Assembly: GCA_018263355.1 (NCBI GenBank)
Contig: JAANXH010000043.1
Location: forward strand, 443 to 64,442
Origin: Candidatus Woesearchaeota archaeon
Lineage (GTDB): Archaea; Nanobdellota; Nanobdellia; Woesearchaeales; JAGVZT01
DNA: 64,000 bases
Direction: 5' to 3'
The notes beneath the pieces are model-generated. The model did not search any database and was not told the DNA's origin. It saw only the letters and a program-made list of their open reading frames with translations. The position numbers and the translations under genes were made by a program. Position 1 is the first letter of the stretch, and the number at the start of each line of letters is the position of its first letter. Below are positions 16,504 to 37,260 of the stretch, one piece after another.

Positions 16504-17241
16504 TCACTTCTTAGCCAGACTCCATAACAACTTGAAATATTTCCTGTATGATTCTGCCATCCTCTCACTTTCAATAAGAATGGCAAGAGGTGGTTTTGAC
16601 CAGATAAAAAATGCTACCTTGTTTGCATAAACTGTGGTTGCAGCTGGACTATCATATTCTTTTGGCAAATAACCAGCATCTGTATAGGGCATAGACCTTA
16701 GATGCTCTAATCTTTGTTTTGCATCAGCATTATATATATGGATTTGCTCTATTTTTTTTGCAATTCTTCTTTTATGGTATATTTTTATGAAATTTTTCAT
16801 TAAATCGGGTGTGTTTTTTGGATTCCCAAATGTAAGTACTTTATCATTTTCTTTGCAGCTAATCAGAATATCTTCTGTTATTGACTTGATTCCAGCAATT
16901 CCTTCAAATACCATTGCTTTATCTTTGGATTTTGCAAGATTATCACTTAGTTTTAACTGAGGAATTATTTGTTTTAATTTTTCCTGCTTTTGTTTAACAA
17001 TTCCTATTAAACTTTCTGGATTACTTGCTTGAAAATACTTAACATTATTTTTTTCTATATGAGATACTACTCCTTTTTGCATTAGTCTGTCTAATGCATC
17101 ATATACAGTTGTTCTGTGAATTTTAGAAGAATCTGCAATTGTAGATGCAGTTGAGGATCCAATGTTATTTAGTGTAAGGTAAACTTTTGCTTCGTTTTTA
17201 CTAAACCCAATATTTTCCAGTATTTTCAGAAGTTCTTCCAT
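16504..17241 (-). CDS. TrmB family transcriptional regulator
   Basis: LENIGFSKNEAKVYLTL...IHRTTVYDALDRLMQKG wHTH, VFEG linker, C-terminal sensor-like domain. Confidence 0.85.
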   Translation of the reverse strand: MEELLKILENIGFSKNEAKVYLTLNNIGSSTASTIADSSKIHRTTVYDALDRLMQKGVVSHIEKNNVKYFQASNPESLIGIVKQKQEKLKQIIPQLKLSDNLAKSKDKAMVFEGIAGIKSITEDILISCKENDKVLTFGNPKNTPDLMKNFIKIYHKRRIAKKIEQIHIYNADAKQRLEHLRSMPYTDAGYLPKEYDSPAATTVYANKVAFFIWSKPPLAILIESERMAESYRKYFKLLWSLAKK

Positions 17242-17324: not shown

Positions 17325-17915
17325 ATGAGAATTTTATGTTTTGTTGATCTTCATGGAGATTTTGGAGCTATTAAAAAACTAAAAAATAAATCCAAAAGAG
17401 CAGATTTGTTAGTTTGTGCTGGAGATATTACCAGATTTGAAACAGATATTGACCATATTTTGCAAAAAATCAACAATATTGGGAAAAAAACTCTTATGAT
17501 TCATGGAAATCATGAATGTTCAGATTTTTTAAAAGAAAAATGCGAAAATTATCCAAATATTTACTTTTTTCACAAAAAAGCCCAATTTATCAATAATATC
17601 TTATTTATGGGATTTGGAGGTGGAGGTTTTGAACAATCTTGTCCTGAAATGGAAGAATTCTTTAAAAAACATAAGAATTTGTTAAATAATGCTAAAAAAA
17701 AGGTTTTTATTACACATGCTCCTCCTTTTAAGACAAATTTAGATGTTCTTGGCAAAGATTACCATGGAAATAATACTTTAAAAAATCTAATTATAAAATT
17801 CCAACCAAATTTTGCTATTTCTGGACATTTTCATGAGAATTGGGGTAAGTTTGACACTATTGGAATGTGTAAAGTGCTTAATCCTGGCCAAAAGGGGCGT
17901 TTTTTTGAAATTTAG
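17325..17915 (+). CDS. Metallophosphoesterase (calcineurin-like)
   Basis: DLHG, GD, GNHE, THAPP, GHFHE motifs. Confidence 0.85.
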   Translation: MRILCFVDLHGDFGAIKKLKNKSKRADLLVCAGDITRFETDIDHILQKINNIGKKTLMIHGNHECSDFLKEKCENYPNIYFFHKKAQFINNILFMGFGGGGFEQSCPEMEEFFKKHKNLLNNAKKKVFITHAPPFKTNLDVLGKDYHGNNTLKNLIIKFQPNFAISGHFHENWGKFDTIGMCKVLNPGQKGRFFEI

Positions 17916-18075
17916 TCTCAATCTTGTCTTGAGACTGTCTCAAGACTGTCTCACTAAGTTCCACATGAAACCAAGGAGTATACTCTCCACATGAAATCAA
18001 GGGGTTCTAGCTCCAGTGGAAATCAAGGGGTGTCTCAATCTTGTCTCAAGACTATCTTGATTCTGTCTCATGAGA
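17915..18075. promoter_or_regulatory. Putative replication origin: three ORB-like boxes flanked by GTCTCAAG/TGTCTCA repeats
   Basis: TCCACATGAAACCAAGG (17960), TCCACATGAAATCAAGGGG (17986), TCCAGTGGAAATCAAGGGG (18012), spaced exactly 26 bp apart. They match the archaeal ORB pattern TCCAxxGAAA...GGGG. Confidence 0.65.
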
Positions 18076-18531
18076 CAAAGTTTTAAATACTACTTAATTA
18101 ATTGGATGATTATGGGGGATGAATTAGAAGAATTAAAGTATAATCTGAAAGTTTCTTTTTCCAGGATGAAAAATGATATTCAGGATAATAAGGAAAAGAT
18201 TTCTAAGCTTCTAGAAATAAACCAACAGTTAACTAATGAGATTCAAAAATTACACAAATCCTTAGATAAAGGCTCTGATTCCAAGTCAGAGCTTGCCAGA
18301 CAGTTTAATAGAAACAAAAAATCAATAATACAACAGAGGATTATAGATTTAGTCCAAAAAGCTGAGTATAATCTCCCAGATCTTAAAAGAATTATTGTTG
18401 ACCAGAAGAGATACTGCTCAAAAGCCACATTCTATAGATATATTAATGAATTAGAAGAATCTAAGTTATTAAATACAGCTGAAGTTAATGGAGAGAACAT
18501 TGTTGTTGGTACAAATAGCAAGATACAATAG
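18070..18531 (+). CDS. Coiled-coil plus winged-HTH protein next to the putative origin
   Basis: N-terminal coiled coil; C-terminal CSKATFYRYINELEE HTH. True start probably 18106 or 18112. Confidence 0.7.
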   Translation: MRQSFKYYLINWMIMGDELEELKYNLKVSFSRMKNDIQDNKEKISKLLEINQQLTNEIQKLHKSLDKGSDSKSELARQFNRNKKSIIQQRIIDLVQKAEYNLPDLKRIIVDQKRYCSKATFYRYINELEESKLLNTAEVNGENIVVGTNSKIQ

Positions 18532-18581
18532 ATTAAATTTTTCCAAAACTATTTTAATATAAGTTAATTTTTGGTATAAAC

Positions 18582-20333
18582 ATGACTCGAATTGCAGTTG
18601 TTGAAAAGGAGAAATGCAACCCTAAAAAATGCGGGGATTGGCTTTGTGTTAGATTATGCCCTGTTAACAGAACTGGAGAAGAATGCATTGTTAAAGGTAA
18701 TGATCAAAAGGCGAAGATTGATGAAAAACTATGTACTGGTTGTGGAATCTGTCCTCAGCGCTGTCCTTTTGGTGCAATTCATATTATTAATCTGCCTGAA
18801 CAGTTAACTCAAGAACCAATTCATAGATTTGGTGAAAATTCTTTTGCTTTGTATTCTCTGCCAACACCTATGTTTGGAAAGGTTGTGGGGATTTTAGGAA
18901 GAAATGGAATTGGTAAGTCTACAGCTGTAGAGATTCTTTCAGGATTGCTAAAACCAAATTTAGGTAATATTGGACAAAAAGCAGATATTGATAATCTTAT
19001 TGAGTATTTTAAAGGTAGTGAAGCACAAAAGTTTTTTGAAAATATTAGAGATGAAAAGATTGTAGTTAGTTTCAAACCCCAAAAAGTAGATGCTATTCCT
19101 GACCAGTATCAAGGTAAGGTAAAAGATCTTTTGGAACGTGTTGATGAAAAAAACGAGTTAGATAAGGTGGCTGTAAAACTTGATCTTACAAAAATATTAG
19201 ATAATGATATTGGCAATATTTCTGGGGGTGAACTACAGAGAGTTGCGATTGCGGCAGCTGTATTGAAAAAAGCTAATCTTTATGTTTTTGATGAGCCAAC
19301 TTCTTATCTTGATATTAAGCAAAGAATCAAAGTTAGTAAGTTTATTAAAGAGCTAGCAGATGATGATACTGCTGTTTTGGTTGTTGAACATGACCTTATA
19401 ATTCTTGATTATATGACTGATCTTGTGCATATTATGTATGGTAAGCAGGCAGTTTATGGTATTGTAAGTAAGCCAATGACTACAAAAGCTGGGATTAATA
19501 TTTATCTTGAAGGCTATTTAAAAGAAGAAAACATCAGATTTAGGGATTCAAAAATCAAGTTTATTGAGAAAGCTCCAACTAAACAAGCTAAACAAAACTC
19601 TTTAGTTAAGTGGGATGATATTTACAAAAGACTAGGTAAATTTGAGCTTACTGCAAAATCTGGAGAATTAGAAAATAAAAAGGTTATTGGTGTTGTTGGA
19701 GAAAATGCTATTGGTAAGACTAGTTTTGTCAAGATCTTGGCTGGAGCTCTTGAATCTGATAAAGGAAATATTCTTGGAGATATTAAAGTGAGTTATAAGC
19801 CCCAGTATTTGGAATCCACAGACCAGCTTGTTGCTGTGGTTTTAAGAGATGCTATGAAGCACAAAGCACAGTTAATTACTCCTTTGGATATTGAACCATT
19901 AATGCAAAAAAAACTTTCAGAACTTTCTGGAGGTGAACTGCAAAGAGTTGCTATTTGTGCTTGCCTAGCAAAAGATGCAGATTTATACCTACTTGATGAG
20001 CCTTCTGCTTATCTGGATGTTGAGCAAAGATTAAACGTGTCTAAAGTTTTAGGTAATGTTATTTCTAAAAGAGAAAAATCAGCTTTAGTTGTTGATCATG
20101 ATTTACTATTTATTGATTATATTTCAGAGCAGCTTTTGGTTTTTGATGGTGTTCCTGCTGAAAAAGGAGTTGTAAATGGACCATTTTCAATGCAAAAAGG
20201 TATGAATATGTTTTTAAAAGACCTAGGGATTACCTTTAGGCGAGATCCAGAAAGTAAAAGACCTAGAGCAAATAAACCAGAATCTGTTATGGATAGAAAA
20301 CAAAAATCAGAAAATAAGTTGTATTATACTTAA
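18582..20333 (+). CDS. rli1: ABCE1/Rli1 ribosome recycling ATPase
   Basis: N-terminal 2x4Fe-4S Cys motifs, two ABC domains with LSGGELQRVAI signatures, C-terminal TFRRD...RPRANK. Confidence 0.95.
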   Translation: MTRIAVVEKEKCNPKKCGDWLCVRLCPVNRTGEECIVKGNDQKAKIDEKLCTGCGICPQRCPFGAIHIINLPEQLTQEPIHRFGENSFALYSLPTPMFGKVVGILGRNGIGKSTAVEILSGLLKPNLGNIGQKADIDNLIEYFKGSEAQKFFENIRDEKIVVSFKPQKVDAIPDQYQGKVKDLLERVDEKNELDKVAVKLDLTKILDNDIGNISGGELQRVAIAAAVLKKANLYVFDEPTSYLDIKQRIKVSKFIKELADDDTAVLVVEHDLIILDYMTDLVHIMYGKQAVYGIVSKPMTTKAGINIYLEGYLKEENIRFRDSKIKFIEKAPTKQAKQNSLVKWDDIYKRLGKFELTAKSGELENKKVIGVVGENAIGKTSFVKILAGALESDKGNILGDIKVSYKPQYLESTDQLVAVVLRDAMKHKAQLITPLDIEPLMQKKLSELSGGELQRVAICACLAKDADLYLLDEPSAYLDVEQRLNVSKVLGNVISKREKSALVVDHDLLFIDYISEQLLVFDGVPAEKGVVNGPFSMQKGMNMFLKDLGITFRRDPESKRPRANKPESVMDRKQKSENKLYYT

Positions 20334-36192: not shown

Positions 36193-37260
36193 ATGGGAAT
36201 GTTTGATGATATGCTAAAAGCTGATGAGTCTTTGTTTAAGAATCCTGTTGCTCTTGATTATGATTATCTACCAAAATTACTTCCTTTTAGAGAAGGTGAA
36301 CAGCGTAAAATTGCTGCCTGTATCAAGCCACTTTTTCAAAGAAGAAATGGTCGCAATATTTTGATTTATGGTAAGTCTGGAGTTGGTAAAACTGCTGCTT
36401 GCAAACATGTTTTAAAAGAACTCGAAGAACAAACTGACAAGATCACACCTATTTTTATTAATTGCTGGCAAAAAAATACTTCTTATAAAATTTTAACCCA
36501 GATATGTGAATTAATAGGTTATAGACTAACTCATAATAAAAAAACAGATGAGCTACTAAAAGTTGTTGTGAAACTTTTAAACAAGGAATCTGCAGTTTTG
36601 GTTTTTGATGAGATTGATAAGGTTGAGGACTATGATTTTCTTTATTATTTTCTAGAAAGCATTTACAGAAAGAGTGTGATTCTAGTCACTAACCATAAAA
36701 AATGGTATAATGAACTTGATTCTAGGATTAAGTCCAGATTAGTTGCAGAAATGCAAGAGTTTGAACCTTATGATTTAAAAGAAACTGCTGGAATACTTCG
36801 ACAAAGGATTTTACATGGTTTTTATGAGGGTGTTTTTAATGAGGAGTCAATAAATCTAATCACAAATAAAACCTATCAGTTAAAAGATATTAGATCTGGA
36901 CTTTATCTGTTAAAAGAGGCTGCAAATATTGCAGAGGAAAACGCTAGTAGAAAAGTAGAGCTTGAGCATGTTAAAAAGGCAATAGGTAAGCTTGATGATT
37001 TTAAGATTAAGAATAGTGAAGATCTTGATGAGGATACACGAAAGATTCTTCATATTATAAAAAATAATTCTGGAAAAAAGATTGGGGACTTATTTAAAGT
37101 TTACCAGGAAGATGGGGGAGAGCTTGTATACAAGACTTTTCAAAGAAAAGTCAAAAAGCTTGAGAAAGGAAAATATATTTCTGTAAATAAAAAAACTGGA
37201 GGCAAGGACGGCACTACCTCTATACTTAATTATGATAATACTAAGCTGACTGATTTTTAG
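36193..37260 (+). CDS. cdc6: Orc1/Cdc6 replication initiator
   Basis: Y.P..LPFRE, GKSGVGKT, FINC, FDEID, G..R sensor region. Confidence 0.88.
   Translation: MGMFDDMLKADESLFKNPVALDYDYLPKLLPFREGEQRKIAACIKPLFQRRNGRNILIYGKSGVGKTAACKHVLKELEEQTDKITPIFINCWQKNTSYKILTQICELIGYRLTHNKKTDELLKVVVKLLNKESAVLVFDEIDKVEDYDFLYYFLESIYRKSVILVTNHKKWYNELDSRIKSRLVAEMQEFEPYDLKETAGILRQRILHGFYEGVFNEESINLITNKTYQLKDIRSGLYLLKEAANIAEENASRKVELEHVKKAIGKLDDFKIKNSEDLDEDTRKILHIIKNNSGKKIGDLFKVYQEDGGELVYKTFQRKVKKLEKGKYISVNKKTGGKDGTTSILNYDNTKLTDF

Follow-up and report, generated by a model that had tools for sequence, protein, structure and literature searches.

A 162-bp block of ordered repeats was analysed in a 64,000-nucleotide stretch of a Candidatus Woesearchaeota archaeon genome (contig JAANXH010000043.1 of assembly GCA_018263355.1, positions 443 to 64,442; the whole stretch is called the window, and coordinates are those of the window unless a contig is named). 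The block, termed the module, combines origin recognition boxes (ORBs) for the initiator Orc1/Cdc6 with arrays of the hexamer GTCTCA, and it lies in front of a gene encoding a coiled-coil and winged helix-turn-helix (wHTH) protein. On balance the module is probably a site at which Orc1/Cdc6 and the wHTH protein would bind together away from any origin, and here it would also be the operator of the wHTH gene. The module is not the main origin of the genome, nor a canonical origin; oriC lies beside the canonical cdc6 on another contig.

The ordered repeats occupy nearly all of the 190-bp gap between a metallophosphoesterase gene and the gene starting at 18112. The parts of the module, the TATA-like box and the gene were as follows:

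17915-17953, plus strand: left GTCTCA array, with GTCTCA at 17915, 17937 and 17948, TGAGAC at 17930 and a degenerate in-phase GTCTTG at 17926; 11-bp phasing.
17960-17978, plus strand: ORB box 1, core TCCACATGAAACCAAGGAG.
17986-18004, plus strand: ORB box 2, core TCCACATGAAATCAAGGGG.
18012-18030, plus strand: ORB box 3, core TCCAGTGGAAATCAAGGGG.
18032-18076, plus strand: right GTCTCA array, with GTCTCA at 18032, 18043 and 18065, a degenerate in-phase ATCTTG at 18054 and an inverted TGAGAC at 18071; 11-bp phasing.
18081-18089, plus strand: TATA-like box TTTTAAATA, 4 nt past the last TGAGAC and about 30 nt ahead of the start ATG GGG GAT at 18112.
18112-18531, plus strand: wHTH gene, encoding a 139-amino-acid coiled-coil and winged-helix protein of an uncharacterised family, with the conserved start MGDELEEL.

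The three ORB boxes run head to tail at an exact 26-bp spacing, and each reads TCCA-N3-GAAA-N4-GG(G/A)G. Box 3 contains CTCCAGTGGAAAT, the reverse complement of ATTTCCACTGGAG, which is the core of the Pyrococcus furiosus ORB2 oligonucleotide (13-nt identity; PMC1904270); that oligonucleotide was bound by purified Cdc6/Orc1 in gel shifts (PMC1904270). The right array begins 1 nt past the G-string of box 3, and its terminal TGAGAC forms the palindrome TGTCTCATGAGACA (18064-18077). The initial annotation had described three ORB boxes at exact 26-bp spacing, two clusters of TGTCTCA-type repeats bracketing them, and an AT-rich patch followed by a coiled-coil wHTH gene. All of these were present, the boxes starting at 17960, 17986 and 18012; the AT-rich patch was short (18077-18105) and contained the TATA-like box. 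From its position, TTTTAAATA is probably the core promoter of the wHTH gene and would give a near-leaderless transcript. The first G of the left array (17915) is also the last base of the TAG stop of the metallophosphoesterase gene (stop and first hexamer together span 17913-17920), so that the start of the module is the exact end of the upstream gene; the same was seen in three relatives (G001, G002 and G003).

A weight matrix was made from the ORB boxes of the genome itself, and the whole genome (1.17 Mb) was scanned with it. Seven ORB sites scored 28-36 bits and were confined to three loci; the next best site scored 15 bits, and shuffled genomes gave 4-5 sites above 14 bits with the same matrix. 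The boxes of the module scored 33-36 bits and, given also the 13-nt identity to the Pyrococcus core, their designation as genuine ORB-type elements stands. Because the strong sites sit at three loci only and the next best reaches 15 bits, ORB boxes are not scattered genome-wide; such scatter was an outcome that the initial annotation had named as one that would count against it. The hexamers were similarly concentrated. The 162 bp of the module contain eight of the genome's 266 GTCTCA/TGAGAC hexamers, together with six of the eight hexamer pairs spaced at 25 bp or less, and the module arrays are the sole GTCTCA clusters in the genome. The arrangement of ORBs and GTCTCA hexamers is beyond chance. 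A chance repeat, a CRISPR-like array and an RNA gene were all rejected as the identity of the module; an Rfam search of positions 17700-18700 returned no RNA family.

The same three kinds of ORB locus recurred in 41 relatives, from which 20 regions were fetched so that the genes adjoining the ORB loci could be named. Seven genera of the family shared the left-array layout GTCTCA-N9-TGAGAC-N1-GTCTCA-N5-GTCTCA, followed by two to three ORBs at 26-bp spacing and then by the right array. Across these genera 23 of the 24 columns specified by the ORBs were invariant, and the mean conservation of the spacer was 0.62. The order TGAGAC-N3-6-TATA-like box-about 30 nt-ATGGGGGA was kept in all seven family genomes (7/7).

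A wider survey covered 201 sampled genomes of the order Woesearchaeales. An 11-bp phased GTCTCA pair was found in 46 of the 201 genomes; a reversed control pattern gave 13 matches in 12 genomes. The phased pair lay no more than 600 bp from a wHTH-family gene in 36 of these 46 genomes (31 upstream of the gene, 5 downstream), while the ten genomes lacking a nearby wHTH-family gene comprised nine single matches and one contig edge. One to three ORBs were embedded in phase within the array at 29 of the 32 loci examined. At these loci a hexamer stood 10-13 nt ahead of the first ORB, and another hexamer followed the last ORB at +18 to +23 nt, counted from start to start, at 16 or more loci from many families. 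The ORB was single and flipped within arrays of the same sense at about five loci, including L156, L158, L159 and L161 (G050, G073, G175 and G198).

Arrays beside a wHTH-family match and without an ORB were found at three chromosomal loci: L152, L153 and L165 (G177, G078 and G024, respectively). The array of G024 carried repeated ATATTCCCA units in place of an ORB. Since such ORB-less arrays exist beside wHTH-family matches, the hexamers go with the wHTH protein. Judged from these layouts, the stable pair is the hexamer array and the wHTH gene, and the ORBs are a very frequent and precisely placed insert. The suggestion made at the outset that a second, dedicated DNA-binding protein recognises the repeats is well matched by these data: the GTCTCA repeats behave as sites of such a protein, and the wHTH gene is locked to them genetically across the order. 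Two putative viral contigs (L188 and L189) also carried fragmentary wHTH-family matches with GTCTCA arrays and no ORB. In one of these (L188:428-682, an IMG/VR contig of 3.6 kb) a short wHTH-family match had GTCTCA/TGAGAC arrays on both sides; this contig may be a misfiled cellular fragment.

Further in-frame ATGs of the wHTH gene lie at 18106 and 18070; the ATG GGG GAT at 18112 is the start kept in all homologues. The AlphaFold2 model of the protein (mean predicted local distance difference test score of 84) consists of a single long helix (residues 2-54) and then a winged helix. Neither YCSKATFYRY, in the recognition-helix region, nor the family core C-S-x3-F-Y-R varies, and this fits the module because the hexamer is also invariant. 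The family is large, with 585 representatives at 50% clustering (E≤0.001). Sequence searches of Pfam, NCBIfam and PDB assigned the protein to no family and gave generic wHTH and coiled-coil signals only; the top 50 Foldseek matches were exclusively winged helices of the generic PadR/ArsR/Fur type. A Pfam scan of 40 family members gave no match to a Cdt1 family at E≤0.01, and the protein had no Pfam match to a Rep family. The analogy to WhiP that had been drawn initially was therefore not upheld at the protein level, as judged from these family and fold searches and with no direct comparison to WhiP made. The wHTH family was also nearly absent from viral contigs, with three weak matches among 2.9 million, and a captured mobile replicon was not supported as the source of the module.

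The canonical oriC of the genome was located on contig C47 (95794-96120). An inverted ORB pair at 95864 (minus strand) and 96099 (plus strand), accompanied by one weak box, brackets about 215 bp of 94-97% AT, where the DNA is less stable than anywhere else in the genome and where the most AT-rich 150 bp of the genome lie. This region is directly upstream of orc1/cdc6, followed by polD(small) and polD(large), and has a trmB-like gene on the other side. The orc1/cdc6 gene of C47 encodes the only protein in the genome with a Cdc6_C (winged-helix) domain. Raw GC skew on contigs C38 and C47 only tracked gene orientation and was replaced by an orientation-corrected skew at third codon positions (GC3 skew). 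The C47 oriC sits at a V-shaped minimum of this measure: across it, the GC3 skew changes from 0.08 to 0.39 for plus-strand genes and from 0.40 to 0.14 for minus-strand genes. By its sequence features the C47 orc1/cdc6-polD locus is a classical Pyrococcus-type oriC. The canonical cdc6 was encoded in 11 of the 12 regions fetched for the inverted ORB pair, and in the twelfth (L040) the trmB-like gene, often found on the far side of oriC, was all that appeared. The initial annotation had taken the module to be the origin, placed away from cdc6; the locus with inverted ORBs, an AT-rich stretch and a skew minimum is the one on C47, outside the window and thus not visible to that annotation.

The gene that had been read as cdc6, 18 kb from the module, proved to be a different member of the family:

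36193-37260, plus strand: divergent Orc1/Cdc6 paralogue with AAA+ and lid domains; TIGR02928 score just above the cut-off.

This paralogue had no match to Pfam Cdc6_C. Matches at E≤1e-10 were found in all 201 sampled genomes, mostly at 50-68% identity, and the distance from paralogue to module was 18 kb in the window and 49 kb in G003. The paralogue was rejected as a marker of an origin, the canonical orc1/cdc6 and the classical origin being on another contig; its co-occurrence with the module is uninformative because it is universal in the order.

A direct ORB pair, also on C47 (84292 and 84375; to 84396), lies upstream of the tbp-mcm operon. The same pair, 83-86 bp apart, stood ahead of (tbp-)mcm and in its orientation in nine of nine genomes (L022-L029 in the relatives), two of which lacked tbp. 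ORBs are used at promoters in the order, since the pair precedes (tbp-)mcm in every one of these genomes, and the placement of the pair suggests that the initiator controls the helicase operon. The tbp-mcm intergenic region was very rich in AT, ranking in the top 0.01-0.3% of genome windows according to the window size used, and was more origin-like than the module.

The module itself has 62% AT, as against a genome mean of 68%. There was no unwinding element in or next to it: its least stable 80-bp window was ordinary, with 17% of genome windows as unstable. All three boxes are on the plus strand, without an inverted ORB pair, and the flanking genes are co-directional and run through the module one way. 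No canonical orc1/cdc6 adjoins it, and the module was 90-280 kb from oriC in six genomes. In five relatives the GC3 skew of plus-strand/minus-strand genes was compared on the two sides of the module:

G001 (same genus): left of module 0.29 / 0.05; right 0.39 / -0.09.
G003: left of module 0.00 / 0.34; right -0.01 / 0.43.
G013: left of module 0.42 / -0.10; right 0.24 / 0.03.
G040: left of module -0.09 / 0.32; right 0.00 / 0.48.
G103 (closed genome): left of module -0.02 / -0.23; right -0.05 / -0.22.

The polarity was the same on both sides in each of the five genomes, and no skew switch occurred at the module. In G103 the skew and the gene-strand bias flip at the cdc6-oriC, with 8 plus-strand and 56 minus-strand genes on one side and 64 plus-strand and 22 minus-strand genes on the other. 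In the closed genome G091 the whole-genome skew curve placed an origin-type switch at 0-10 kb, at neither cdc6 nor the module, the latter being about 45 kb away. The skew check proposed in the initial annotation therefore came out negative, both in the five genomes without a switch at the module and in G091. For all these reasons (no unwinding element, no inverted ORBs, co-directional flanks, no skew switch and an oriC elsewhere) the module is not a canonical origin.

The skew was not aligned with the expected loci in every relative. In G003 the maximum was at the cdc6-oriC and the minimum at about 253 kb (G003:C1, L042-L061). Neither ORBs nor shared synteny were found at the skew minima of G003 (about 253 kb) and G091 (0-10 kb). 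The off-oriC skew in G003:C1 (L042-L061), G091:C1 (L102-L147) and G028:C2 (L092-L101) could possibly reflect rearrangements, origins without ORBs, or origin-independent replication.

The most probable working of the module, read from its layout, is as follows. One to three Orc1/Cdc6 monomers would bind the ORBs head to tail, and several copies of the wHTH protein would bind the GTCTCA hexamers on both flanks, the wHTH array assembling through the long helix of the protein. Because the hexamers are 11 bp apart, the wHTH proteins would align on one face of the DNA helix. Since the ORBs keep to the phase of the hexamers and lie directly against the nearest ones, Orc1/Cdc6 and the wHTH protein probably touch and form one nucleoprotein complex. 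This complex should set transcription of the wHTH gene, because the last hexamer is 4 nt from the TATA box in this genome and in the family; control of the gene would then consist of self-repression by the wHTH protein with an input from initiator occupancy. A further output that involves Orc1/Cdc6 itself is probable, as the module is the sole clustered GTCTCA target and stays beside the gene even out of promoter position. In our view the initiator, or else replication or the behaviour of the chromosome, is probably a further target of the complex.

Several observations weigh against this account of a non-origin co-binding site that is also an operator. The module lies 3' of the gene in 5 of the 36 genomes, and the ORB is flipped within the array in about five; for these reasons a pure promoter-operator role cannot be universal. 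A regulator with its own promoter as its sole clustered target needs another output. The exclusion of an origin is affected as well. The cdc6-adjacent oriC was not at an origin-type switch in G003, G028 and G091, three of the six relatives or contigs tested, and this weakens skew, which is an imperfect witness of origins. In G000, the genome analysed here, the 18 kb to the left of the module is a weak-skew region, and the skew test has little power there.

The module was compared with known systems. It shares the ORB sequence of canonical Orc1/Cdc6 origins (Pyrococcus oriC, Sulfolobus oriC1), the 13-nt core of box 3 being the Pyrococcus ORB core, but it is without the inverted ORB pair, the AT-rich unwinding element, the adjacent orc1/cdc6 and the skew switch; an origin that has these is at about 95.8-96.1 kb of C47. 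In Thermococcales, the dp1 gene contains an internal ORB/mini-ORB cluster that is bound by Cdc6/Orc1 (chromatin immunoprecipitation (ChIP) and gel shifts) and whose role is unknown (Matsunaga et al., 2007; PMC1904270). As a conserved ORB cluster outside the unwinding region, it is the nearest archaeal precedent; however, it lies within the 5-kb oriC-cdc6-dp1 region, whereas the module is far from oriC and embedded in the site array of a second protein. In Pyrococcus, oriC was practically the sole Cdc6/Orc1 site by ChIP-chip (PMC1904270).

Other likenesses concern the layout of sites and genes. The module resembles Sulfolobus oriC3 in having ORB-type elements beside the gene of a winged-helix protein and not beside orc1. 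Sulfolobus oriC3 is a mapped origin and WhiP is a Cdt1-like protein; here the protein has 139 amino acids, with a coiled coil, a single winged helix and no Cdt1 signal, and the site is without origin hallmarks. In Escherichia coli, the datA and DARS loci consist of initiator boxes clustered away from the origin, and accessory DNA-binding proteins take part in their function. By analogy the module would correspond to such a cluster with accessory-protein sites, although the domain of life, the initiator and the accessory proteins are all different. In parC of plasmid R1, a central element has a set of 11-bp direct repeats on each side and the gene for ParR next to it, and the system is autoregulated; the module likewise has 11-bp phased direct repeats beside the gene of its presumed binder (36 of 46 genomes; binding inferred), as in iteron systems. 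In the HM silencers of yeast, a site for the origin recognition complex (ORC) is flanked by sites for sequence-specific factors and acts on transcription. Compared with parC/ParR and the HM silencers, the module has no partition NTPase and no silencing machinery, and the likeness is architectural only. The parts of the module (ORBs, and a phased array beside the gene of its binder) are known. For their combination, with initiator boxes in register in the array of a second protein, at a single off-origin locus and order-wide, full-text literature searches found no description.

Three further explanations of the module were weighed. It could be a non-canonical secondary or dormant origin, in which the wHTH protein, bound to the iteron-like arrays, would assist MCM loading by a polar Orc1-ORB complex, much as oriC3 of Sulfolobus relies on the adjoining initiator gene whiP. 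True ORBs are present, and 11-bp iteron-like arrays with a dedicated DNA-binding gene next to them resemble plasmid origins and agree with the rule that an origin lies beside its initiator gene. The module also remains beside the gene when it is out of promoter position, and 90-280 kb from oriC (six genomes) would be a plausible spacing between two origins. The strongest origin-type switch of the closed genome G091 falls only about 45 kb from the module, with none at the cdc6-oriC, but the switch was resolved at 0-10 kb and not at 869 kb. A secondary origin is also hard to reconcile with the lack of an AT-rich unwinding element in or next to the module, with ORBs that are all direct, or single, with co-directional flanking genes, and with skew and gene-strand polarity that do not change across the module in G001, G003, G013, G040 and G103. 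The wHTH protein matches no Pfam Cdt1 or Rep family and its fold search gave generic winged helices, while the near absence of its family from the 2.9 million viral contigs leaves capture of a mobile replicon unsupported. Taken together, a secondary or dormant origin is unlikely. The module might instead be a centromere-like or chromosome-organising site, where the coiled-coil protein would assemble on the phased arrays in the manner of ParR on parC and Orc1 would be a passenger or a tether. The module does have a central element between two sets of 11-bp direct repeats and adjoins the gene of the presumed binder, the long N-terminal helix suits higher-order assembly, and there is one locus per genome. 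This explanation does not account for the ORBs, the best-conserved part of the module, and no partner NTPase is linked to the site (the neighbours are a phosphoesterase and rli1, and are variable elsewhere), so a centromere-like role is very improbable.

A somewhat better case can be made for an initiator-control locus, an archaeal counterpart of datA/DARS, in which off-origin boxes and an accessory protein would titrate Orc1/Cdc6 or change its nucleotide state, the dose of the locus following replication timing. Off-origin initiator boxes tightly juxtaposed with sites for a dedicated accessory protein, one such locus per genome, a moderate distance from oriC and the persistence of the module when detached from the promoter are all what such a locus would show. 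On the other hand, one to three boxes provide a small titration capacity, some arrays are without an ORB, and the promoter position in most genomes is explained by simpler gene regulation. A role as an initiator-control locus is accordingly doubtful. Similarly tentative, and held at low probability, is the broader proposal that Woesearchaeales have a dedicated off-origin initiator-control locus at which Orc1/Cdc6 is clamped between two phased wHTH arrays, the initiator being sequestered, recycled or used for silencing and licensing being coupled to gene expression. The co-binding site outside an origin, with a local role as operator, remains the preferred explanation.

The neighbouring genes in the window were as follows:

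16504-17241, minus strand: TrmB-family regulator gene, two genes upstream of the module.
17325-17915, plus strand: calcineurin-like metallophosphoesterase gene, the upstream neighbour, co-directional; synteny in most of the family.
18582-20333, plus strand: rli1/ABCE1 gene, the downstream neighbour, co-directional; synteny in the family.

The synteny of ORBs, wHTH gene and rli1 that had been proposed as a check held within the family, and the neighbours varied in other families. No partition NTPase or Rep protein was linked to the module, the neighbours being the phosphoesterase and rli1 here and other genes in other families. The TrmB-family gene at 16504-17241 is a distant paralogue (33% identity over 108 amino acids) of the trmB-like gene beside the canonical oriC, and a related trmB-like gene adjoins oriC in many members of the order.

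Overall, Woesearchaeales keep perfect initiator boxes at two places that are not origins, namely the promoter of the helicase operon and the module. The module is a caution that ORB motifs by themselves may mislead when origins are called in metagenome-assembled genomes. To our knowledge, little has been established beyond a few model species on how archaea limit replication to once per cycle, or on whether Orc1/Cdc6 has roles away from origins. The module offers a testable system of about 200 bp of DNA and two small proteins, in which the archaeal initiator may be acting as a transcription factor or be regulated by a chromosomal locus. If the proposal of a dedicated initiator-control locus is true, Orc1/Cdc6 would, with the ORB pair in front of tbp-mcm counted as well, be the hub of a small replication regulon, and the module, as an archaeal analogue of bacterial datA/DARS or of ORC-dependent silencers, would be the first of its kind.

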